Source: a plasmid. Taken from it: a stretch of DNA of 64,000 bases. Under the pieces are notes generated by a model that made no database searches, was not told where the DNA came from, and was given only the letters and a program-made list of their open reading frames with translations. The position numbers and the translations under genes are program-made. This document shows positions 10,881-58,534 of the stretch, in pieces (positions within the stretch are counted from its first letter, which is position 1; each line of letters starts with the position of its first letter). The stretch lies in the sequence record NZ_CP093377.1. One strand, given 5' to 3'.

Positions 10881-11029
10881 GGATATATACAGTTTTTGGA
10901 CTGTTATTCCTGGGCAGATGATCGACAACGGGATATAATGGCGATGGCGCTTGAGGCTTTTTGCCTCATGATGTGAAGGTGGTTTGTTGTCGTGTTGTGT
11001 GGCAGAAAGCAGAAAGCCCCGTAGTTAAT

Positions 11030-11100
11030 TTTCATTAACCCACGAGGCCCCCTGTATGTCTCAACAACAACAGTATGGCCTCTTACCGTGCTTAATGCAA
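11030..11100 (-). ncRNA. sok: Sok-like antisense RNA of the hok/mok locus (approximate)
   Basis: Position inferred from type-I toxin-antitoxin locus organisation, antisense to the mok start region. Not delimited from sequence alone. Confidence 0.35.
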
Positions 11101-11271
11101 GGAGGAGTAAACCATGAAACTGCCGCGAAGTACCGTTATCTGGTGCGTACTGATAGTGTGTCTCACACTGCTGATATTCACTTACCTGACGCGAAAATCG
11201 CTTTGCGAAATTCGCCTGAGGGACGGACAACGGGAGGTCGCTGCAATTCTGGCTTACGAATCCAACGGTAA
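11056..11271 (+). CDS. mok: Mok, modulator of killing (overlapping reading frame needed for hok translation)
   Basis: 71-aa ORF overlapping hok in the +1 frame and ending 4 nt before the hok stop. Confidence 0.6.
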
Positions 11272-16541: not shown

Positions 16542-17081
16542 TTACTGTCCGCTATGTAACGAGGCCGTTTCCGCAATTTGAATCGCCTTCTCCTTTCCCG
16601 CAGCTGGCGCCAGACGTTCAGAAAGCAACTTTTTTCTGGCGAGCAATACACGATATATATTTTTGATATCCTGAGCATACGCCTTGCGCTGCGCAATGAG
16701 CTTTTTGCTCGGCCCCGTATTATACATCCCTACGCTGTCCCAGTTTTTTCCGTATGACCTGAAGTTGTGCGCCAGTACCCATGCACCCGTATAAACGCAG
16801 ATGCATGGATCATTCAACAGGCGCTCTCGGGTAATATTGAAGTTTTTAAGTTTACCGTAATGAGAACTGTTCACCTGCATCCCGCAGACATCTTCTGTTC
16901 CATTTCTGTTAGATCCATTTATCGCACCCGGCTTAAGTCTGCTCTCTTTAATTGAAATTGACATAAGCAGCAGCGGATCAATTTGATAATCTTTCCCGGC
17001 CTGATCAAAGCACATCTGGGGAGCTGCGCCAGCAGACATGGATAGGGTCAGCAATGCCGCAGGGAGTATCGATATTTTCAT
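16542..17081 (-). CDS. lytic transglycosylase (F orf169/gene X family) with signal peptide
   Basis: 179 aa. SLT-domain motifs (LLLMSISIKESRL, GMQVN, AYNTGP-like). Confidence 0.75.
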   Translation of the reverse strand: MKISILPAALLTLSMSAGAAPQMCFDQAGKDYQIDPLLLMSISIKESRLKPGAINGSNRNGTEDVCGMQVNSSHYGKLKNFNITRERLLNDPCICVYTGAWVLAHNFRSYGKNWDSVGMYNTGPSKKLIAQRKAYAQDIKNIYRVLLARKKLLSERLAPAAGKEKAIQIAETASLHSGQ

Positions 17082-17099
17082 TGTTTGGCCTTTTAACGA

Positions 17100-17679
17100 A
17101 ATACACGGGCTCTGGAGAGTCGCCTTAAAAAATACCCCGGCGGATCGTCGTAATCAAGTTAATTCACTACAAACGCGCGTGAGCGCTCTCCTGAAGGGAT
17201 TTAACACCCGTCCGAAATAAACATGTCAGAGCAGTAGACGGTATTAACACGCCGCTCTTTACTAACCCTTTAAAACATCACACCCCACGCAAGACTTCGT
17301 CTTGCAGATTTTTTCTTTAAATTCAGTGGCATGATGTGTGTTTTATTTCGTAATTTTTGAGTATGCGCGCTTAAGGTGTGTGGATTGACACACATTGCAG
17401 TGCTTAATCAGGCACTGCAATGTGTGCTAATACAGCACTCTGAAGTGTGGGGATTGTGTGTATTCAATTAATAGAGTAACTTAAAAGTAGATGGTGCCTG
17501 AACCACACACATCATAGTGCCTAATGCACACACATCATAGTGCCTGATTAGCACACATCTTTAGGGATGGATTAGATATAAAATCAGTTGGTTACCATAA
17601 CACAGCACCACTGACAGTTGTTAAAGCTCGCCATTGCAGTGCCGCATCAGGCACTGCATTAGAATATCGAGAAATTATT
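17100..17679. other. oriT region. Contains inverted repeats at 17393..17425 and 17636..17668 (TraM-binding-site-like) and two tandem 22-bp direct repeats at 17503..17548.
   Basis: AT-rich intergenic region between the gene-X-like gene and traM. Palindromes cattgcagtgcttaatcaggcactgcaatg and attgcagtgccgcatcaggcactgcatt. Direct repeat cacacacatcatagtgcct[a/g]a. The nic site could not be pinned down from sequence. Confidence 0.55.
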
Positions 17680-18066
17680 ATGCCAAGAAAGAACATTTAC
17701 TTTAAAGACAAAATTGACCGCGAAATACATGATATTCTTGAAATAGAACTACAGAAAGGGGCCACCACCTCTGAGATGAACTACTCATCAATAGTCAACG
17801 AATTAGTACGCCTTGGGCTAATGGTTTACAAATCGAAAGAAGAAGGAAGCTCATTTGACCTGGATGGCTTCAGGCGCGACCTTATAAAGAAAGTCTCCGG
17901 GTCGCGAGAAGGTATTATGATTCTGACTGCCCTTGTTTCTGACATCTTCGTTACACTCAAAGGTCCCGACTCTGGCGTGAAACTGGAAGAGCTCATAAAC
18001 ACCAATATCAGTGCAATTAACGATGCGGAAGATAAAGCCGAAAAAGACCACTTCCTGGCAGGGTAA
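17680..18066 (+). CDS. traM: TraM, relaxosome accessory protein
   Basis: 128 aa, first gene after oriT. Length and charge pattern as F TraM. A bidirectional hairpin follows at 18078..18098. Confidence 0.8.
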   Translation: MPRKNIYFKDKIDREIHDILEIELQKGATTSEMNYSSIVNELVRLGLMVYKSKEEGSSFDLDGFRRDLIKKVSGSREGIMILTALVSDIFVTLKGPDSGVKLEELINTNISAINDAEDKAEKDHFLAG

Positions 18067-18104
18067 ACTAGCTTCTTTGGCCGGAACACTCCGGCCAGAA
18101 TCGA

Positions 18105-18791
18105 TCACTGGGACGGCTTTTCATCCCACGGAAGGTCACTTTTCTCCACCTCTCTTATTTTTTCCTTCAGAAACACCTCGAACTCCATACAAAGAACTTT
18201 AAGCGCCTGCGCATCCTCGTTCTGGTCAAGTAACCTTTCCGTAAAATAACCCAGCGTATTCATCAGACGGGTAAGCATTTCGTCATTAAGACTACGGTTA
18301 TGAACCTTCGCCATCGCCCTGATTTCATCCGCGAGATTCTCAGGAATACGCATGCTGTAGCCAGTTGTTTTCCCTGGAAGTAAAATTCTTTCACCCTCAC
18401 GCCACACCCACAACTGCTCCTGTTTGGGCGGGACTTTAACATCTTCCGCAACATCAACGGATTCACCATCAAGTAATTTCCCCAGCCACTCCTCAAATTT
18501 CACCGCCAGTGCAATGAGACGCTCACCCTCCGCAGTTTTAATGACAGGCCTGCCTGGCTGGTAATTCAGCGACAACAAAAGCCTGGCAATAATTTCCTCA
18601 TTCACGCTCCTGTTGCCAGCTCTGGCACATATTCTCAGCTCCATAAGCAGATTATCCGGAGCGCGCAATCGCCATTCCACAGCTTCACCCGGCTGGAACT
18701 TACGCGGACGGCCGCGACCATCCCACATTTTCTCTTTAACTTTCATAGCTATAGATCTCGGAGGCCATTTCCGTACTTTCTCGTCAACCAA
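18105..18791 (-). CDS. tandem Arc/MetJ-type ribbon-helix-helix DNA-binding protein (two repeats of a ~100-aa module), divergent from traA
   Basis: 228 aa. Two Arc-like motifs (ELRICARAGNRSVNEEIIARLLLSL and IRAMAKVHNRSLNDEMLTRLMNTL), each followed by a similar amphipathic helix. It occupies the traJ/traY slot on the opposite strand. Confidence 0.65.
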   Translation of the reverse strand: MVDEKVRKWPPRSIAMKVKEKMWDGRGRPRKFQPGEAVEWRLRAPDNLLMELRICARAGNRSVNEEIIARLLLSLNYQPGRPVIKTAEGERLIALAVKFEEWLGKLLDGESVDVAEDVKVPPKQEQLWVWREGERILLPGKTTGYSMRIPENLADEIRAMAKVHNRSLNDEMLTRLMNTLGYFTERLLDQNEDAQALKVLCMEFEVFLKEKIREVEKSDLPWDEKPSQ

Positions 18792-18942
18792 GCCTACTCA
18801 CTTACCCATTCAGATAAATCTGAATAATTCTAAAAAATGTGACATGGGTCACAGTTTTTTTTTTTTGAGGTTATGGGACAATTGCGCCCGCGTAAACAAG
18901 CACTTACGCGAATCACTTTTGTTTACCTCGGAGAAAACAAAC

Positions 18943-19296
18943 ATGTTAACCAAAGGCAGTGCCCTTAACGTCGGAAAGGGAGGGGCGGTAGCGTATTTAT
19001 TCCGTAAAGCACGCGAAAATCGCCAGACTAAATTTTACTTAAAGTCAGCAGGCGCTTTTTTAATTTCACTTATGGTCACTCACCCGGCATTCGCATCTGG
19101 TGCTGACCTTCTTTCCTCACAGAACACCACGGTTAATTCCACCTTCGGTTCCGGCTCTTCATTGATTAAATGGTTTTACATCGCCGAAATCATCATGGGC
19201 CTGTTTATTTACATCAAGGCCCGTTCACCGCTGGTATTCGTCGGTATCGTAATGGCAATCATCTTTACCCGTGTAGGCTTCGGCATAGCGAGTTAA
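18943..19296 (+). CDS. traA: TraA propilin
   Basis: 117 aa. Pilin-like sequence ...SQNTTVNSTFGSGSSLIKWFYIAEIIMGLFIYIKARSPLVFVGIVMAIIFTRVGFGIAS, alignable with the F TraA mature pilin. Confidence 0.85.
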   Translation: MLTKGSALNVGKGGAVAYLFRKARENRQTKFYLKSAGAFLISLMVTHPAFASGADLLSSQNTTVNSTFGSGSSLIKWFYIAEIIMGLFIYIKARSPLVFVGIVMAIIFTRVGFGIAS

Positions 19297-19299
19297 ACG

Positions 19300-19602
19300 A
19301 TGAGCGGGGATGAGGATAAATATAACTTCCCGGAAACAATGAACCAGCAGGACCGCTATTTAGGCTTGCCAATTGATGAATTAATTGTTACCGCACCCCT
19401 TTTAGTTTTGGGGGTGCTTAACAATCTGTCACTCGAACTGGGTGTAATCGCGGGAATCCTCTGGTTTATCGTCAGATATCTGAAAAAAGGGCAGGGATCA
19501 TACTGGTTACTTAATTTCTGTTACTGGCACCTGCCATCACTTTTGTTCAAAGTAACCTTTCGCCAGATACCTGATTCAAGTTTCCGGCACTGGAGGGCAT
19601 AG
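19300..19602 (+). CDS. traL: TraL pilus assembly protein
   Basis: MSGDEDKYNFPETMNQQDRYLGLPIDE... matches the F TraL N-terminus. Confidence 0.85.
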   Translation: MSGDEDKYNFPETMNQQDRYLGLPIDELIVTAPLLVLGVLNNLSLELGVIAGILWFIVRYLKKGQGSYWLLNFCYWHLPSLLFKVTFRQIPDSSFRHWRA

Positions 19603-42980: not shown

Positions 42981-43292
42981 TTAACTGCCCGTCACAAGAA
43001 AATCTACCGCACTGACGATGATATCCCTCATCTCAGGGCAGTAAATGTGAAAATCGTTTTCATCCAGTTCATGCAGATATACGGTCTGGATAAGTTGAGT
43101 CATCAGAATATACCGTTCACCGTCGATCACGATACTGGGGTTGATTTTGCTCATACCTGGCAGAGAAGGTCGCCAGCGAACAAACGGGATAATCACCCGC
43201 GTATTGAGATCTTCAAGCTGACCAGATTGTGCAATGACAAAGTACGGATATTCTTCGTTATCTGGCCGCCGGAATATTGAGCCCTGCTTCAT
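42981..43292 (-). CDS. ccdB: CcdB-family gyrase-poisoning toxin
   Basis: 103 aa, alignable with F CcdB (RVIIPF...; IVIDGERYILMTQLIQTV). Confidence 0.7.
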   Translation of the reverse strand: MKQGSIFRRPDNEEYPYFVIAQSGQLEDLNTRVIIPFVRWRPSLPGMSKINPSIVIDGERYILMTQLIQTVYLHELDENDFHIYCPEMRDIIVSAVDFLVTGS

Positions 43293-43537
43293 TTAAACAC
43301 TCGCAAACCCGCACTACTGACAGGGATCGCATGTTCTTCAGTGAACCGGTTAGTGGCGGCTATAGCCTCTCTGTTTTCTTCCTTCCATCTTATCTGTCGC
43401 TTTTTGCGAACAACATCCTCCAGGGCTGTGTTCAGCGTGGCTGACAGGTTGATGTTTAACATTTTCGCTTCTTCAACCAGAGCGGCATCAAGCGAAATGT
43501 TCGTGTTTTTCTTTCTGGCTCGCATAGCAGTATTCAT
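43289..43537 (-). CDS. ccdA: CcdA-family antitoxin
   Basis: RHH N-terminus, alignable with F CcdA (ARRLRAERWKAENQEGM versus KKRQIRWKEENREAI). Start taken at MNTAM; the upstream in-frame Mets at 43543 and 43570 are also possible. Confidence 0.7.
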   Translation of the reverse strand: MNTAMRARKKNTNISLDAALVEEAKMLNINLSATLNTALEDVVRKKRQIRWKEENREAIAATNRFTEEHAIPVSSAGLRVFK

Positions 43538-43762
43538 GCGCATCACCTCATGTACGTCCAATATGCGCATTACTATAGCGCAGGATTAGCAAATGCCCAA
43601 CTGATGGGCAGCTGTAGCAGAGCGCTTCTGTAGACGATACACAGGCACCGGTGCGTAATTGCCTGATGCCTCTCCACAAACGTTTCGCTTCCTCGCAGGA
43701 CTGCGCCAGGCGCAGCCCTGCCTGCGGCGAGCGTTGCATACACAAACGTAAAGGCATTCACC

Positions 43763-44062
43763 ATGAATACAACATTCCTCTCCCGCACCGTAAACGTGCT
43801 TTTCTTTTCCTTTCTGACTCTGGTCAGCACCATTTATCTGCTGGAAAGATTCGGCGTTGATCTTTTGAAATGGCGGGCCGGGAGTTCATTACTCCTGACC
43901 TATACCTCTGCGCTGTCCGGTGCGGGTTTTGAGTGGGCCAGTGAGCTGAACACCATTGTTATTCTTCTTATTTTCCTGTGCGGCGGCGTGCTGGTTTCCC
44001 TGCTCACGGCTTATCTGTTTCGTGTTATTGGGCTGTTATCGAATCAACTTAAACGTTCGTGA
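43763..44062 (+). CDS. small membrane protein
   Basis: 99 aa, 3 transmembrane segments. Confidence 0.45.
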   Translation: MNTTFLSRTVNVLFFSFLTLVSTIYLLERFGVDLLKWRAGSSLLLTYTSALSGAGFEWASELNTIVILLIFLCGGVLVSLLTAYLFRVIGLLSNQLKRS

Positions 44063-44123
44063 TTCAAAGAAATAGTGAACTGAAGCATGCCCTGTTGCCG
44101 GGGCATTTTCACGGGAGGACATC

Positions 44124-44432
44124 ATGCGTTTTGATAGAACAGAAGGCGATCTTGCCGGTTTATTGCACCTTATCCATCTGGAAAGCGAGCTGATGGCAGC
44201 AAGGGCCTGGATGAATGTATTTGGTTCACTTCCTGAGGGGCAAGGTATGACCATTGTTGCTTTCTGGGCTGGCTATGAATTTACCCTTTATGATCTGGAG
44301 CCCCGGGAGTGGCATTCACCGGTTTATAAGGATGTGGCTTGGTCAGTCCGTTCTGTGGCTGCATACATTAATAAACAGGACTGGGAGGACGGATGTCAGC
44401 AGGCCAGGTATGAACTGAGTCAGATGAAATAA
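44124..44432 (+). CDS. hypothetical protein
   Basis: 102-aa ORF. Confidence 0.45.
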   Translation: MRFDRTEGDLAGLLHLIHLESELMAARAWMNVFGSLPEGQGMTIVAFWAGYEFTLYDLEPREWHSPVYKDVAWSVRSVAAYINKQDWEDGCQQARYELSQMK

Positions 44433-50100: not shown

Positions 50101-52549
50101 GGTTTCCCGGTCCACATGGGAGATGGAGAAAGCCATTCTGCGTGTGGTGGAGGAAGGGAAAGGTACGCAGCAGCCGTTGCTGGAACAGGTACCGGAGGCC
50201 GTGCTGAACGGACTCACCGATGGCCAGAAAAAGGCGACCACCCTGGTGCTGGGCACCACGGATCAGTTTATCGGGATTCAGGGCTATGCCGGCGTGGGGA
50301 AAACCACTCAGCTGAAGGCGGTGATATCTGCACTGGAGACCATACCGGCGGACGTTCGTCCGGTGATGACGGGTCTTGCCCCGACGCACCAGGCGGTGAA
50401 AGAAATGAGCGACGTCGGTGTCCGGGCGCAGACCATCAAATCCTTTATCGTTGAACATGACCAGGCGACGGCCGCAGGCGGTAAGCCCGACTATAAAGGA
50501 CAGGTGTTTCTTATCGATGAGTCCTCAATGGCAGGCAACCAGGATACGGCGGCCCTGTTCCAGGCCATTGCCAGCGGCGGCGGTCGCGCGGTCTCGATGG
50601 GGGATATCGACCAGTTTGAATCGGTCGACGTGGGCGCGCCGTTTAAGCTGATGCAGGAGCGCAGTCCGATGGATGTGGCCATCATGAAGCAAATCGTCCG
50701 CCAGAAAGACCTGCAGCTGCGCGGTGCCGTTCACGACATCATTGATAACCGGATCGATGCGGCCCTGCAGCGCATTGAAACCCAGCCGGCTGACCGTGTG
50801 GCGCGTAGCGCTTCAGCCGCGCTCCCTGAGAGTGCCATTCAGGAAACGGAGACGCCCGTTAACGACATCGTGGCTGACTGGACGGACCGGACGCCGGAGG
50901 CGCGGTCCCGTACCCTCATTATCACCCAGCTGAACGCTGACCGTCGTGCGGTAAATGCCGGCATTCATGCTGTGCTGGCTGCCCGGGGAGAGCTGGGGGA
51001 GAAGGCCATAACGGTGCCGGTGCTCGATAAAATCACCCACACCCGTCATGAGTTTAACAAAACCGATGCCTGGGAAGCCGGGATGGTGGTTAAACGCGGC
51101 GATCGCTACCAGGACGTGCTGGCCGTTGACCGCAACGGCAGTACGGTCACGGTACGCGATGAGGAGGGGAAGATTGGACTGTATTCCCCGAAGCAACTCA
51201 TCACCGGCGACGTGCAGCTGTTTCGCCGCAGCGAGAGGGAAGTCCGCGCCGGCGATCTGCTGAAGTTCACGGCGACAGACAAGGAGCAGGGACAGATGGC
51301 CAGCCAGCGCTATACGGTCGAGTCGGTCAGCGAAACGGGCAATATTCGTCTGAAGGGGGAAAACGGCCGCATCACCATCAATCCTCAGGCGGTCAGGGCG
51401 CAGCAGCATATTGACTACGGCTGGGCCGTCACCGGGTACGGTGCTCAGGGAGCCAGCAGCGATTATGTCATTGCGCTTGAGGGCACGGAAGGCGGGCGTA
51501 AGGCACTTGCCTCCCGTCGCGCCTTCTACATCTCGGCCTCGCGCGTGAAAGAGCACGTCCAGATTTATACCGACGGGAAGGCGGACTGGGTTAAGGCGGT
51601 AAAAACGCCGGAGCGGGATATCAAAACGGCGCACGATGCGCTGGCGCCAGAAACGCAGCGTAAACAGGCGAAAGCCATCTGGGCAATGGGACAGCCGGTG
51701 AATAAAACGGCCATTGGCCGCGCCTGGGTGCGCCATCAGGGTATGCAGAACGCGTCACTGACGGCAAAAATCATCCCGGCCACCCGGCGCTTTCCCGAAC
51801 CGGCGCTGGCGCTGCCGGTGTATGACAACAACGGCCGGAGTGCGGGCCTGGCCCTGGTTTCCCTGGTTGCCAGCCCGGAAGGGCGGATGACGCAGGGGGA
51901 GACCCGGATGGTCATGACAGATCGTGCCCGTGGTGCAGTACTGCAGCGGAGTCAGTCCGGAAACACGATTGTGGTCAGTGACCTGGCGGCCGCGCTCGAT
52001 GCCGTACGACATCACCCGAAGGACGGCGTGGTCTGGCAGACCGGCGATGAGCCACCATCAGCACATCTGCTGAAAGTCAGCGGAGGTATCGTTACGGAGG
52101 CCGCATCAGAACACAAACTGATCCGTGACCAGGAGGAAACCACACGACAGACGGAAAAAGACATGCTTAACAAAGCCGCTAAAGCGGAAAAAGAAAAGAG
52201 TGAGACTCAGGAGCGTATTGTTGTGCCGGTGGAGGACGCGGTGCGTATTACGCCCGGGATGCTCGAGGTTGACGACCGAAATGAGCCAACGATTCCTGAC
52301 GGAAAAGTGCTCATTCAGGTTGCCAGCTCGGACAGCGTTAGCCACGATGAGATTGGCCGTCATATCAGGGCAGAAAAGGAACCATTGGCCAGCAAAGTCG
52401 CTTCGGAACGTGCGGGAGTCAGCCGCATTGTGAATGAGCTGGCCAATACCGAGCGGGATATTATCCGGCAACCCGAAAATAGCGAGCGCGGCCGCATGCC
52501 GGAGCGTGAAGAACAGACCCTCACCCGAACCATTCAGAAAGAACGTTAA
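47135..52549 (+). CDS. traI: TraI relaxase-helicase
   Basis: 1804 aa. N-terminal relaxase (MMSVAPVASAGEAAGYYS...), helicase motifs GYAGVGKT. Confidence 0.95.
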   Translation: MMSVAPVASAGEAAGYYSNSDNYYFLGSLQSLWMGEGAKALGLEGNVRGDDLTAVLEGRLPDGSRLGKEVNGQHVHRPGHDLTFSAPKSVSILALIGNDKEMVEAHNHAVRVAAGYVEKLISARDTKDGVTSIVHTGKMVAAAYTHDTSRNLDPQLHTHLLIANMTEYAGKWKALATDYIHNAGFIETVMKHQVTLGKIYRSALRERVEALGHEVEEVGKHGMWEIKGVPEDVRDEYSSRGREIQGAVGAEATLRSRDVAAKDTRRAKVDPSRMRLMERWLGQMKEKGFDLKAYQESVVPRDAGLREAPPLPAREHQPTPVPAGPEQASPQTSSRAEKSPDTPAQSAERESLSRQPVPQQTDTMSQPALTGPEKTPTARSFPAAQRDTEIPRPELTEAVRLAISQLSDSKTRFTFGELMLTTAELSEQLPEIQDIRVAIDAALKDGMIVPLDSEKGVFTSRIHLLDELSIQALSQEHLKSTKVVSFTRPAQYAPAALEVVEKDALVLMNAPSGVAGIRDLTAQLAGIAGANGRDVQVLASSAERAISLAKSDDLRERIISRQHVLSGDFHLKPQSTLIIEGAERLGLKETLVLLGEARAQDAQLVFLDSAGRQANGNAMSVLESAGVARSRRTEPAPGLEAEVVSIPNKRDRYEALANRFAELSGGSENVTAVVVGRREQAQLTGLVREALQNAGQLGRDGVEIEARQPVWLDSKTRRMPGSYRPGMVLEDRTDAKARKSYVIDRVHEDTRVLSLIDGDGVLTRMKIGDISADWRLFSRETLSVATGEKLLAVAGDREHSLKAKDRLEVTGISEKGIEVKRGEETLTLPKDQPLYLSHAYVTAPGGRDNDTGVVLAALNSRDISSQTMNSLAQSGHRAEVFTAEVQDRAEARLQRMKTSASPVQLVRSLSGHDDVSQAVDSLHDSVRTDAGLAVWRAINDQRTVVFSELKLATEAHKYHPDLEAIGNEIGAMVKNGELLSVSAGGEPVLVSRSTWEMEKAILRVVEEGKGTQQPLLEQVPEAVLNGLTDGQKKATTLVLGTTDQFIGIQGYAGVGKTTQLKAVISALETIPADVRPVMTGLAPTHQAVKEMSDVGVRAQTIKSFIVEHDQATAAGGKPDYKGQVFLIDESSMAGNQDTAALFQAIASGGGRAVSMGDIDQFESVDVGAPFKLMQERSPMDVAIMKQIVRQKDLQLRGAVHDIIDNRIDAALQRIETQPADRVARSASAALPESAIQETETPVNDIVADWTDRTPEARSRTLIITQLNADRRAVNAGIHAVLAARGELGEKAITVPVLDKITHTRHEFNKTDAWEAGMVVKRGDRYQDVLAVDRNGSTVTVRDEEGKIGLYSPKQLITGDVQLFRRSEREVRAGDLLKFTATDKEQGQMASQRYTVESVSETGNIRLKGENGRITINPQAVRAQQHIDYGWAVTGYGAQGASSDYVIALEGTEGGRKALASRRAFYISASRVKEHVQIYTDGKADWVKAVKTPERDIKTAHDALAPETQRKQAKAIWAMGQPVNKTAIGRAWVRHQGMQNASLTAKIIPATRRFPEPALALPVYDNNGRSAGLALVSLVASPEGRMTQGETRMVMTDRARGAVLQRSQSGNTIVVSDLAAALDAVRHHPKDGVVWQTGDEPPSAHLLKVSGGIVTEAASEHKLIRDQEETTRQTEKDMLNKAAKAEKEKSETQERIVVPVEDAVRITPGMLEVDDRNEPTIPDGKVLIQVASSDSVSHDEIGRHIRAEKEPLASKVASERAGVSRIVNELANTERDIIRQPENSERGRMPEREEQTLTRTIQKER

Positions 52550-52577
52550 TCTCCCTTTTAACCATGAGACTCAGACG

Positions 52578-53366
52578 ATGAAAGTACACAAATTAGCGGC
52601 ATTAATAGTTACAACATACGTTAACTTTATTTCAACAGCACACGCTTCGACCACACAACCGCTGTTCAGCCACGAGCAGGAGGCGCGTATAGGCAAAATT
52701 GCGGCCGATTATCTGGTATCTCACCCGGAGATTCTGGTGATCGTCAGTCATAAGCTGCAGGAACAGCAGGAGGCACGTAAGCAGAAGATGTTTGCACTCA
52801 GCGTGATGGAGAATCAGGCGAACCTTCTGCATGACCCGGACACCCCGGCTTACGGGCCTGATAATGCAAAGGTCGCGGTGATTGAATTCTTTGATTACCA
52901 GTGCGTGTTCTGCAGCCGCTTCGCGCCGGAGCTGGAGAAGGTCATGAAAGCGCAGCCGGACGTCCGCTACCTCTTTAAGGAGTGGCCAATATTTGGTGGT
53001 CGCTGGGAAGCCTCACTTCAGGCTGCGCAGCAGGGGCTGACGGTCTGGCAAAAGAAAGGGCCGCAGGCCTATGTCGCCTATCACAATGCCATCTACGCGA
53101 CCGGCCATAATGAAGGCAAACTGACGGCAGATGATATTCACGGGGCTGCGTTAAAAGCAGGACTGGCAACGCCGGCTCCGGGCGAGCATACCGCGTCCCT
53201 GGAGAAAAACAGCAATCTGGCGGAGGTGCTGGGGCTCACCGGAACGCCGGGAATCATCGTGATGCCCGTCACCGGCGCCACACCGGAAACCATCACGGTT
53301 TTCCCGGAAGCCGTTACCGCTGACAGACTGCAGGCCGCTATAAGGAAGGCCTCGCGGGGACAATAG
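52578..53366 (+). CDS. DsbA-family thiol:disulfide oxidoreductase (CVFC active site) with signal peptide
   Basis: EFFDYQCVFCSRF motif. Occupies the traX/finO position. Confidence 0.75.
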   Translation: MKVHKLAALIVTTYVNFISTAHASTTQPLFSHEQEARIGKIAADYLVSHPEILVIVSHKLQEQQEARKQKMFALSVMENQANLLHDPDTPAYGPDNAKVAVIEFFDYQCVFCSRFAPELEKVMKAQPDVRYLFKEWPIFGGRWEASLQAAQQGLTVWQKKGPQAYVAYHNAIYATGHNEGKLTADDIHGAALKAGLATPAPGEHTASLEKNSNLAEVLGLTGTPGIIVMPVTGATPETITVFPEAVTADRLQAAIRKASRGQ

Positions 53367-53789: not shown

Positions 53790-53880
53790 TTTCCCGGAGC
53801 CTGAATGCACAAACCCCCTGAAATCTGTATCCACTTTGGCGGGCGGTTCAGATTCAGGGGGTCCAAAAGCAGGCGCGTTG
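53790..53880 (-). ncRNA. copA: CopA/Inc-like antisense RNA region of an IncFII-type replicon (stem-loop 53813..53862)
   Basis: Imperfect 14-bp inverted repeat ccccctgaaatctg ... cagattcagggggt just upstream of the tap leader peptide and repA. Orientation and extent inferred. Confidence 0.45.
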
Positions 53881-53900
53881 CCTGTGAAGGATTATAACGC

Positions 53901-53954
53901 ATGCACCATAGAAAACAACACCCGGCCGCCATAAGAACAGGCCGCCGTGAATGA
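53901..53954 (+). CDS. tap: tap-like leader peptide (17 aa) translationally coupled to repA
   Basis: MHHRKQHPAAIRTGRRE. Its TGA stop overlaps the repA GTG start. Confidence 0.55.
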   Translation: MHHRKQHPAAIRTGRRE

Positions 53955-58006: not shown

Positions 58007-58534
58007 ATGGCTTTACAAGGAAAATTTGTTGTTAATGACGCTACCTTTAGCCCTTTGACGTTCTATGGCATAGGCACATTTCTGGCTTATTCCGGTAATG
58101 ACTAATACCGGAATCGTGCGGGGTGTATTGGTGTCCATGATAATGGTCCAATTCCTGACGGCCGTTATCACATAGTCAATCGCCCTTCCGGAGGATGGAA
58201 AGGGGTTATTCGTACTGATCTCCATGATTTTTATTCATGGCCGACTTCAAGGCCGGTGATCAAGTATGAGTGGTTTGCCCTGTATCGCGATGACGGGAAA
58301 ATTGACGATCACACATGGGTTAATGGTGTTGAACGGGGGAATTTCCGTTTGCATCCCCCAGGTCCTCTTGGGATAGCCCTAGGATGCATTACGTTGCAAC
58401 ATCGCACTGACTTCATTGCGATTCGACAGGCGTTAATGTCAACGCCGCAGATCAGGCTCCCTAATGGTCTGATGTCTTATGGAACGATTGAGGTGATCTT
58501 GAATGGCCGCGAGACGTGTCCCGACGGGATTTAG
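58007..58534 (+). pseudogene. DUF2778/Tlde1-like L,D-transpeptidase-fold toxin gene interrupted by an in-frame TAA at 58103..58105
   Basis: The same reading frame gives MALQGKFVVNDATFSPLTFYGIGTFLAYSGND*YRNRAGCIGVHDNGPIPDGRYHIV...FRLHPPGPLGIALGCITLQH. This carries the conserved GPIP.G.Y and RLHP...GC(I)TL catalytic His/Cys signature. Confidence 0.55.

Follow-up and report, generated by a model that had tools for sequence, protein, structure and literature searches.

EntFR, a divergent tandem ribbon-helix-helix protein, and its predicted control region between traM and traA of an Enterobacter-type F-like plasmid

What regulates the transfer (tra) operon of an F-like plasmid in which the place of traJ, traY and finP, between traM and traA, is taken by a single gene on the opposite strand? 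The question is raised by a 64,000-nt stretch of the plasmid record NZ_CP093377.1 (the window), for which a preliminary description had reported a reverse-strand, tandem Arc-type ribbon-helix-helix (RHH) protein at this position. With very little room for doubt, the gene is entFR, a lineage-specific regulator of MOBF12 group D plasmids (Enterobacter-type, IncFII/IncFIB, pECL_A-like). The protein, its double RHH and its TraJ- and FinO-negative setting have been known in silico since 2016 as EntFR, and the core observation is not new. Added here are a single-module relative, the linkage of entFR to the traA promoter, the geometry of a CRP core and a candidate operator, IR-1. The result is a sharper, testable map of the control region.

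EntFR is the name given to the conserved double-RHH protein at the traJ locus of group D, with WP_011906555.1 of pENTE01 as the query (Fernandez-Lopez et al., 2016, Front Mol Biosci 3:71, PMC5102898). The group comprises FinO- and TraJ-negative plasmids of Enterobacter, Pantoea, Erwinia, Rahnella and Kluyvera, and the protein was proposed as a functional stand-in for TraY, possibly for TraJ (PMC5102898). The window protein is 97.7% identical (tblastn) to the product of the pECL_A gene, WP_013087192.1, which is among the EntFR homologues listed in supplement 2 of that paper (PMC5102898). WP_013512867.1, the protein of the Pantoea locus L003, is in the same list (PMC5102898). The features that define EntFR are all found in the window: homology, position between traM and traA, two RHH in one chain, and a plasmid without TraJ and FinO. 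A search for later literature on EntFR or on group D regulation, experimental follow-up included, found none.

The gene is present in 249 PLSDB plasmids (tblastn). Its 2-kb layout is matched in 175 plasmids, nearly all of Enterobacter (megablast), with the product annotated as "Arc family DNA-binding protein", and is kept down to about 40% protein identity in plasmids of Pantoea, Erwinia, Phytobacter and Pectobacterium. MOB-suite types the relatives as MOBF, MPF_F. The order traM, entFR, traA, with entFR divergent from traA, is found in every relative inspected. Both the divergent transcription reported for the window and the strand of the homologues, proposed as a check on it, are settled in the same sense. 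As judged by a profile search of 1.84 billion representative proteins the family is narrow, since only about five full-length clusters were obtained.

The locus is made up of the following elements.

17680-18066, plus strand: traM, relaxosome protein (Pfam Tra_M, 43.5 bits; NCBIfam TraM, E 8e-12; TraM annotated in relatives).
18079-18096, no strand assigned: GC-rich inverted repeat GGCCGGA-ACAC-TCCGGCC, read from the sequence, between the convergent stops of traM and entFR.
18105-18746, minus strand: entFR coding sequence, 213 aa from the conserved ATG at 18746, stop codon included.
18943-19296, plus strand: traA, propilin, first gene of the tra operon (Pfam/TIGR TraA; tblastn with F TraA, 2.5e-12).

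Downstream of traA lie traL, traE, traK and traB, in this order (Pfam match for TraL). The reverse-strand gene is real by the list of open reading frames (ORFs) and by its Pfam-identified neighbours; several of its reported dimensions are corrected. The gap between traM and traA is small, as described, and measures 876 bp, not 880 bp. The divergent entFR-traA intergenic region is 196 bp long (18747-18942), not 150 bp. The statement that the gap holds no plus-strand ORF of at least 60 aa is right for ORFs wholly inside it. Two such ORFs touch it, one of 63 aa at 18011-18202, starting within traM, and one at 18613-19296, which is traA extended upstream in frame; neither has a Pfam family match. 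The reported length of 228 aa is that of the mechanical ORF 18105-18791 (minus strand) with its TTG start. The true start is almost certainly the ATG at 18746, with a product of 213 aa, because MKVKEK is the N terminus in all homologues, PGAP gene calls in relatives are 642 bp long, and the 45 nt between this ATG and the TTG lack conservation in an alignment of 36 sequences. The inverted repeat at 18079-18096 may be a terminator between traM and entFR; a T run is absent after it.

The whole protein scores 51.5 bits (E 9e-14) against Pfam Arc (PF03869), in two matching stretches. Scanned separately, the N half scores 25.8 bits and the C half 30.8 bits, the gathering score being 20.4. The halves align with each other at 32% identity over 96 aa (E 2e-16), and the peptides NRSVNEEIIARL and NRSLNDEMLTRL, quoted earlier as the two modules, are both found in the protein. 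On these grounds the tandem Arc-type architecture with a duplication of about 100 aa stands. Structure prediction and profile comparison, the check proposed with that claim, agree with it. A family alignment of 33 homologues (36-96% identity) was used, and an AlphaFold2 model was built on the same alignment. Both RHH cores (22-60 and 127-164) are confident, with a predicted local distance difference test score of about 88, and Arc and Mnt are among the profile matches in the PDB. Parts of the protein, with secondary structure as modelled, are as follows.

18699-18719, minus strand: basic arm GRGRPRK, codons 10-16, preceding the first beta-strand, AT-hook-like.
18567-18683, minus strand: RHH module 1, residues 22-60 (strand 22-30, helices 31-43 and 48-60).
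18471-18533, minus strand: long helix after module 1, residues 72-92, followed by a linker.
18255-18368, minus strand: RHH module 2, residues 127-164 (strand 127-135, helices 136-148 and 153-164).
18141-18218, minus strand: long C-terminal helix after module 2, residues 177-202.

Linker residues 94-119, between the two units, are of low confidence or disordered in the model. Helix 72-92 may take part in oligomerisation. In the basic arm R13, P14, R15 and K16 are invariant among the 33 homologues, R11 and G12 nearly so. By its motif-level likeness to HMGA hooks (R-G-R-P core, basic flanks) the arm may be an AT-hook; the Pfam model AT_hook gives no match on the N-terminal 30 residues. Profile matches in module 2 are single-chain Arc (3.5e-6), AmrZ (3.3e-5), Arc and Mnt. 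When superposed, the model fits the single-chain pseudo-dimers TraY, single-chain Arc and AvtR; structurally it is nearest to F TraY in the relaxosome (PDB chain 9f0x_E). The product is thus modelled as a 213-aa single-chain pseudo-dimer, in which the two beta-strands would pair within the chain into a ribbon that reads DNA, as do those of F TraY and of engineered single-chain Arc.

None of the conventional regulators is detected. No FinP is detected by Rfam at the gathering score in the whole window, nor at E<=5 in 17000-19500. Searches of the whole window with F TraJ and F TraY (tblastn) give noise only; their reach is limited, as F TraM also fails though Pfam finds TraM. TraJ, TraY, FinO and TraX are not annotated in the tra region of one relative that is 94.5% identical over 17400-19400. 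No finO is present among the ORFs after traI, the whole window not having been searched directly with a FinO sequence or model. Directly after traI is encoded a 310-aa DsbA/ScsC-like protein of thioredoxin fold (52434-53366), followed by the pseudoknot of the IncFII repA leader (53812-53933; Rfam PK-repBA, 93 bits), with neither traX nor finO in between. The earlier claims that traJ, traY and finP are replaced and that finO does not follow traI are upheld. A conventional traJ/traY pair hidden on the plus strand was looked for and rejected: the ORFs touching the gap have no family match, and tblastn gave nothing above noise. An RHH gene of TraY type upstream of traD was rejected as well, the ORFs of 99 and 102 aa at 43763-44432 having no Pfam match and not looking like RHH.

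Is EntFR then an inverted, fused and rewired TraY, as had been suggested? This ancestry is rejected. The family profile gives a probability of 0.2% (E 0.33) against F TraY in hhalign. Pfam recognises Arc and not TraY: the TraY model PF05509 has no match on EntFR at E<=1, F TraY itself scoring 130 bits. EntFR repeats in units of about 100 aa (RHH and long helix), TraY in units of about 60 aa. A single-module relative, finally, is found at the same locus. This protein, P0244 (98 aa), consists of one RHH-plus-helix unit, and its gene, divergent from traA, stands between traM and traA in a metagenomic F-type locus (L045, 4375-5720). The intergenic region of L045 contains no CRP box and no T12. An 84-aa ORF before the single-module gene was considered as an unfused first half and rejected, its translation not being RHH-like. 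A further distant relative, P0239 (208 aa), keeps the tandem plan with a KGRPR arm; its gene is divergent from a pilin-like ORF on a short contig.

The tandem most likely arose by duplication in situ, independently, since the 98-aa single-module relative stands at the same divergent position in a distant F-type locus. The divergent-RHH design is probably older than the duplication. TraY of R1 is a single RHH, and TraY of F is a fused tandem (PMC12117103). Given this and the single-module relative of EntFR, the tandems of EntFR and F TraY are, by sequence comparison, convergent.

How the gene might be connected to traA is read from the intergenic region. Its alignment comprised 36 distinct sequences, to which 31 metagenome contigs were later added, and covers two protein clades (Enterobacter and Pantoea). 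Conserved elements, the ribosome-binding site of traA among them, persist in both clades while the DNA between them is scrambled. The elements are the following.

18791-18796, minus strand: putative entFR -10 element, TAGGCT (TAnnCT in relatives), AG..TA core invariant in the 36-sequence alignment.
18809-18824, no strand assigned: inverted repeat IR-1, TTCAGATAAATCTGAA, core RGA-W4-TCY at 18812-18821, candidate EntFR autoregulatory operator.
18838-18853, no strand assigned: palindrome tgtgacatgggtcaca (that is, TGTGACATGGGTCACA), flanked AAA...GTT, centre 18845.5, consensus box for CRP with cyclic AMP (cAMP).
18855-18866, plus strand: T12 tract, separating the CRP box from the putative traA -10 element, in both clades.
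18874-18882, plus strand: putative extended traA -10 element, TGgGACAAT (hexamer GACAAT at 18877-18882), in a conserved block.
18889-18910, plus strand: inverted repeat IR-2, CGCGTAA-ACAAGCAC-TTACGCG, unique in the window, at the predicted traA +1.
18984-18995, plus strand: ops-like element GGCGGTAGCGTA, 41 nt into the traA coding sequence.

The preliminary description had placed a palindrome next to a T13 run in the promoter region. The palindrome is there; the run counts 12 T, and an operator role for the palindrome fits less well than the CRP consensus. TGTGA-N6-TCACA occurs once in 64 kb (0.07 expected by chance), and the GTGA-N6-TCAC core is retained in 32 of the 36 distinct intergenic sequences. 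The distant locus L044 has a perfect CRP-type box as well. By its likeness to the CRP consensus, the palindrome is most likely a cAMP-CRP site and not an EntFR operator. With AAA and TTT flanks the box is nearer to that consensus than the lac site is.

The T tract has a length of 12 in 44 of 58 sequences, including 28 of the 31 metagenome contigs. T8, T10, T11, T13 and T14 are found in a few isolate assemblies, in which slippage or sequencing error is possible; the T10 of pECL_A would give the canonical spacing of 29.5 bp from the CRP box centre to the -10 element. A switch by slippage or phase variation was rejected, the length being conserved and not hypervariable. The tract looks like a length-constrained spacer.

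For the geometry, the hexamers were taken as -10 elements at -12 to -7, with predicted starts at about 18784 (minus strand) and about 18889 (plus strand). The box centre is then at -61.5 of the putative entFR promoter and at -43.5 of the putative traA promoter. In L044 the regulator-side hexamer TAGAAT is exactly 49.5 bp away from the box, and TACTAT, towards the pilin gene, 29.5 bp, which are the canonical positions -61.5 and -41.5. On the traA side the hexamer shared by both clades is xAxAxT; it follows a TG in the Enterobacter clade, and in the Pantoea clade it reads TACACT, with the same spacing.

IR-1 is the better operator candidate. In 37 of 38 loci, from both clades, its core is found 72-78 nt before the entFR ATG; in L044 it lies 28 bp from the CRP box centre. 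The core has four matches in 64 kb. The centre of IR-1 is at -32.5 of the putative entFR promoter and at about -72.5 of the putative traA promoter. Assignment of IR-1 to Lrp, Fis, IHF, ArgR or ArcA was rejected, as no convincing match to their consensuses was seen by eye. The stem of IR-2 is kept in most relatives (-6 to -11 kcal/mol in per-sequence folds), with its outer pairs changing. In the alignment the repeat is GCGTAA...TTACGC. IR-2 would either form a stem-loop where the tra mRNA is predicted to begin or serve as a second operator. A short hairpin at 18759-18773 is located in the predicted 5' leader of entFR (minus-strand transcript); by eye, relatives seem to keep the stem with a different sequence.

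Inside traA, the ops-like element is conserved as GGCGGTAGCGTC in relatives of the Enterobacter clade and is a perfect GGCGGTAGCGTG at the same place in L044. Rfam JUMPstart matches weakly at 18957-18995 (18.7 bits, below the gathering score of 35). The element suggests that RfaH acts as an antiterminator on the 34-kb operon; F transfer needs rfaH in the host (PMC7762799).

The gene and the control region are inherited together. Identity between the window and pECL_A is 97% for entFR, 92% for the entFR-traA intergenic region and 93% for traA. It is 68% for traM and 70% for the region of the TraM sites; the middle of oriT is barely alignable (81% over 28% of its length). The mosaic breakpoint between traM and entFR (17331-18104 versus 18105-19296), near the inverted repeat at 18079-18096, is seen with L012, L015 and L016; in two Enterobacter plasmids besides pECL_A the break is again between traM and entFR. 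Because of this split across the breakpoint (97, 92 and 93% against 68%), entFR is, by sequence identity, inherited with the traA promoter and apart from the oriT/traM module, and the two modules recombine independently. Elements of the latter module, all read from the sequence, are as follows.

17280-17295, minus strand: putative oriT nic-region motif, reverse complement GTCTTGCGTGGGGTGT, kept in most related loci.
After the nic motif, within 17280-17316, no strand assigned: hairpin GCAAGACTTCGTCTTGC and AGATTTTTTCT.
17393-17419 and 17632-17658, no strand assigned: inverted repeats CATTGCAGTGC...CAGGCACTGCA.
17491-17559, no strand assigned: three 23-nt direct repeats.

The nic region is assigned by likeness to the F nic sequence, GTGGGGTGT/GGTG. 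The 70 bp beside the predicted nic site are conserved everywhere and contain the motif AGA-T5/6-CT at 17306-17316, after the nic-proximal hairpin, in a block of 87-100% conservation; the motif resembles IR-1, and EntFR may make a contact there. The repeats in 17381-17660 are probably TraM sites and elements of the traM promoter. A second full IR-1 at oriT was not found, the window having no further good match.

How could such a region work? In the proposed mechanism, cAMP-CRP would be the nutritional input to both the entFR and the traA promoter. EntFR would bind RGA-W4-TCY of IR-1, at -32.5 of its own promoter, and repress itself; from the same site, about -72.5 of the traA promoter, it would help CRP and RNA polymerase to turn on the tra operon. 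EntFR would thereby do the job that TraJ and TraY do at the PY promoter of F, with no layer of FinP and FinO. This model of activation by CRP and EntFR, taken as a whole and including the identity of EntFR, is advanced tentatively, its chance of holding in every part being somewhat below even. The promoters, the partners at each site and the sign of regulation are all predictions. The sign is nearly a coin toss, with a slight lean to activation. The lean comes from circumstantial evidence: the position and linkage of the gene, the location of IR-1 upstream of traA, the precedent of TprA and the crp dependence of F transfer. TprA of PAPI-1, an Arc-like RHH protein, activates conjugation genes (PMC8565334), crp is needed by the host for transfer of F-like plasmids (PMC7762799), and CRP acts on the traJ promoter of pRK100 (Starcic 2003, as cited in PMC7762799).

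An extended form of the model is doubtful. It is a two-input switch without an RNA layer, in which one CRP box would serve two back-to-back promoters, as class I to entFR and as near-class II to traA. EntFR, with its AT-hook and duplicated in situ, would autoregulate via RGA-W4-TCY and gate traA. T12 would put CRP 2 bp off register, so that the promoter could depend on EntFR, and the ops-like element would recruit RfaH for the 34-kb transcript.

Several observations weigh against activation by EntFR and CRP. A consensus scan of the intergenic region finds no full sigma-70 promoter and no usable -35 element for traA, an outcome that could fit activator-dependent promoters, all starts being predicted. 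A T12 tract puts 31.5 bp between the CRP box and the putative traA -10 element, 2 bp beyond canonical class II spacing, which makes activation of traA by CRP uncertain. RHH regulators are repressors in most cases, and nearest to EntFR in sequence are Arc and Mnt, which are repressors, and AmrZ. The predicted DNA-facing strand residues differ between the clades (EWRLRAP/GYSMRIP versus YRKLWLP/FSSSFP) while IR-1 hardly changes, which would fit a host factor at IR-1 more than EntFR. IR-2, and not IR-1, changes with the EntFR clade, and its position at +1 would suit a repressor.

From most of the same facts the main rival can be built, a reading about as good, though given a somewhat lower probability than the activation model: that EntFR is a fertility inhibitor, an Arc/Mnt-style repressor of the traA promoter (for example at IR-2, 18889-18910) and of itself, with CRP as the activator, and replaces FinOP. 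P22 Arc and Mnt also work at a divergent promoter pair, and without FinOP another brake would be expected on a costly 34-kb operon. To the constancy of IR-1 and the sequence relationship to repressors is added IR-2, unique in the window and conserved within clades, whose type switches with the type of the EntFR beta-strand. This co-segregation, however, is one split between two clades, a single evolutionary event, and the compensatory changes in the outer pairs are those of an RNA stem. IR-1, the best-positioned element, is upstream of the CRP box relative to traA and would be a poor repressor site; Arc-like activators of conjugation genes exist, TprA being an example. A smaller probability is given to EntFR as mainly a relaxosome accessory, an equivalent of TraY that would bend oriT beside IHF and stimulate nicking by TraI, with the adjacency to traA incidental or autoregulatory. 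A role of this kind is favoured by Fernandez-Lopez et al. (PMC5102898). The structural match to F TraY in the relaxosome, the failure to find another TraY-like gene in the window and the IR-1-like motif at 17306-17316, a weak likeness, speak for it. Its weak points are the linkage of entFR to the traA promoter module instead of oriT/traM, and the lack of sequence homology to TraY. The zone where TraY binds in F (about +60 to +90 from nic) can hardly be aligned between plasmids with 97% identical EntFR, and the exact IR-1 core is found in the traM/oriT region, downstream of entFR, in just 12 of 38 loci, at a site and with a palindromic partner not kept across clades.

The CRP assignment itself has a competitor: the palindrome with T12 as an EntFR operator, or as an intrinsic terminator shielding traA from traM read-through, and not a CRP site. 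RHH proteins bind palindromes, a hairpin followed by 12 T resembles a terminator, and a scan calls the palindrome terminator-like on both strands. The stem, however, is weak (-3 to -7 kcal/mol) and is eroded to five pairs in Kosakonia-type plasmids, in which TGTGA/TCACA is still exact. Recognition by a protein is preferred over a terminator stem because the pentamers are exact where the sixth stem pair is lost and the hairpin has only -3 or -4 kcal/mol; on this evidence the terminator was rejected. Against an EntFR operator stand the match to the CRP consensus, better than that of the lac site, and the invariance of the box across EntFR clades with different strand residues. The distances to both -10-like hexamers fit CRP geometry, in L044 exactly. 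The competing assignment is regarded as distinctly improbable, and the CRP site is retained.

Plasmids of the pECL_A type (IncFII/IncFIB) are frequent in clinical and wastewater members of the Enterobacter cloacae complex. Their transfer is controlled otherwise than by the textbook TraJ/FinOP circuit. The sign of EntFR action, together with an effect of glucose or cAMP, would explain when these plasmids spread, and EntFR would be a specific target for blocking transfer.

Elsewhere in the window, a toxin-antitoxin pair ccdA/ccdB is located between traT and traD, inside the transfer region (42981-43570, minus strand). Sok antisense RNA of a hok/sok system is found in the leading region (10945-11116, plus strand; Rfam, 98 bits). 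A 92-aa ORF at 58256-58534 (plus strand) has a match to Tlde1 (64 bits) that spans only positions 51-118 of the 120 in the model; the domain is probably truncated.

Among known systems, EntFR of group D (PMC5102898) belongs to the same family, occupies the same traM-traA locus, has a double RHH and is found in TraJ- and FinO-negative plasmids; nothing essential differs. In the passages of that paper on EntFR, the opposite orientation, the CRP box, the repeats, the AT-hook-like arm and a single-module relative are not mentioned, and no experiments are given. F TraY (PF05509; PDB 9f0x, chains E-G) is a member of the tra operon, whereas EntFR is encoded on the opposite strand, outside the tra operon, with its own putative promoter. 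TraY is the first tra gene on the traA strand, expressed from PY; EntFR is divergent in all relatives. Repeats of EntFR are of about 100 aa with an extra long helix in each, and its duplication is independent.

The closest sequence family is that of P22 Arc and Mnt (PF03869; PDB 1arq, 1mnt and, for single-chain Arc, 1u9p). Likeness to Mnt is in the plan of the unit, an RHH followed by a C-terminal helix. Arc (53 aa) and Mnt (82 aa) are small homo-oligomers of phage immunity, whereas EntFR, with its 213 aa, is a naturally fused tandem and belongs to a plasmid transfer region; operator sequences of Arc and Mnt differ from the EntFR candidates. TprA of the Pseudomonas aeruginosa integrative and conjugative element PAPI-1 (NCBIfam NF052309, PMC8565334) is likewise an Arc-like RHH protein of conjugation genes, an activator acting against silencing by nucleoid proteins. 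Its model scores EntFR weakly (17.7 bits, cut-off 150), and TprA has a single RHH, belongs to a different type of element and has a different partner, NdpA2. TraJ, FinP and FinO of group A F-like plasmids share with EntFR the position in the transfer region and presumably the task of deciding whether the tra promoter fires; the two systems have no homology, and here there is neither antisense RNA nor FinO. Input from CRP is received at the traJ promoter in F-like plasmids (Starcic 2003, as cited in PMC7762799), and here would be received at the predicted box between entFR and traA.

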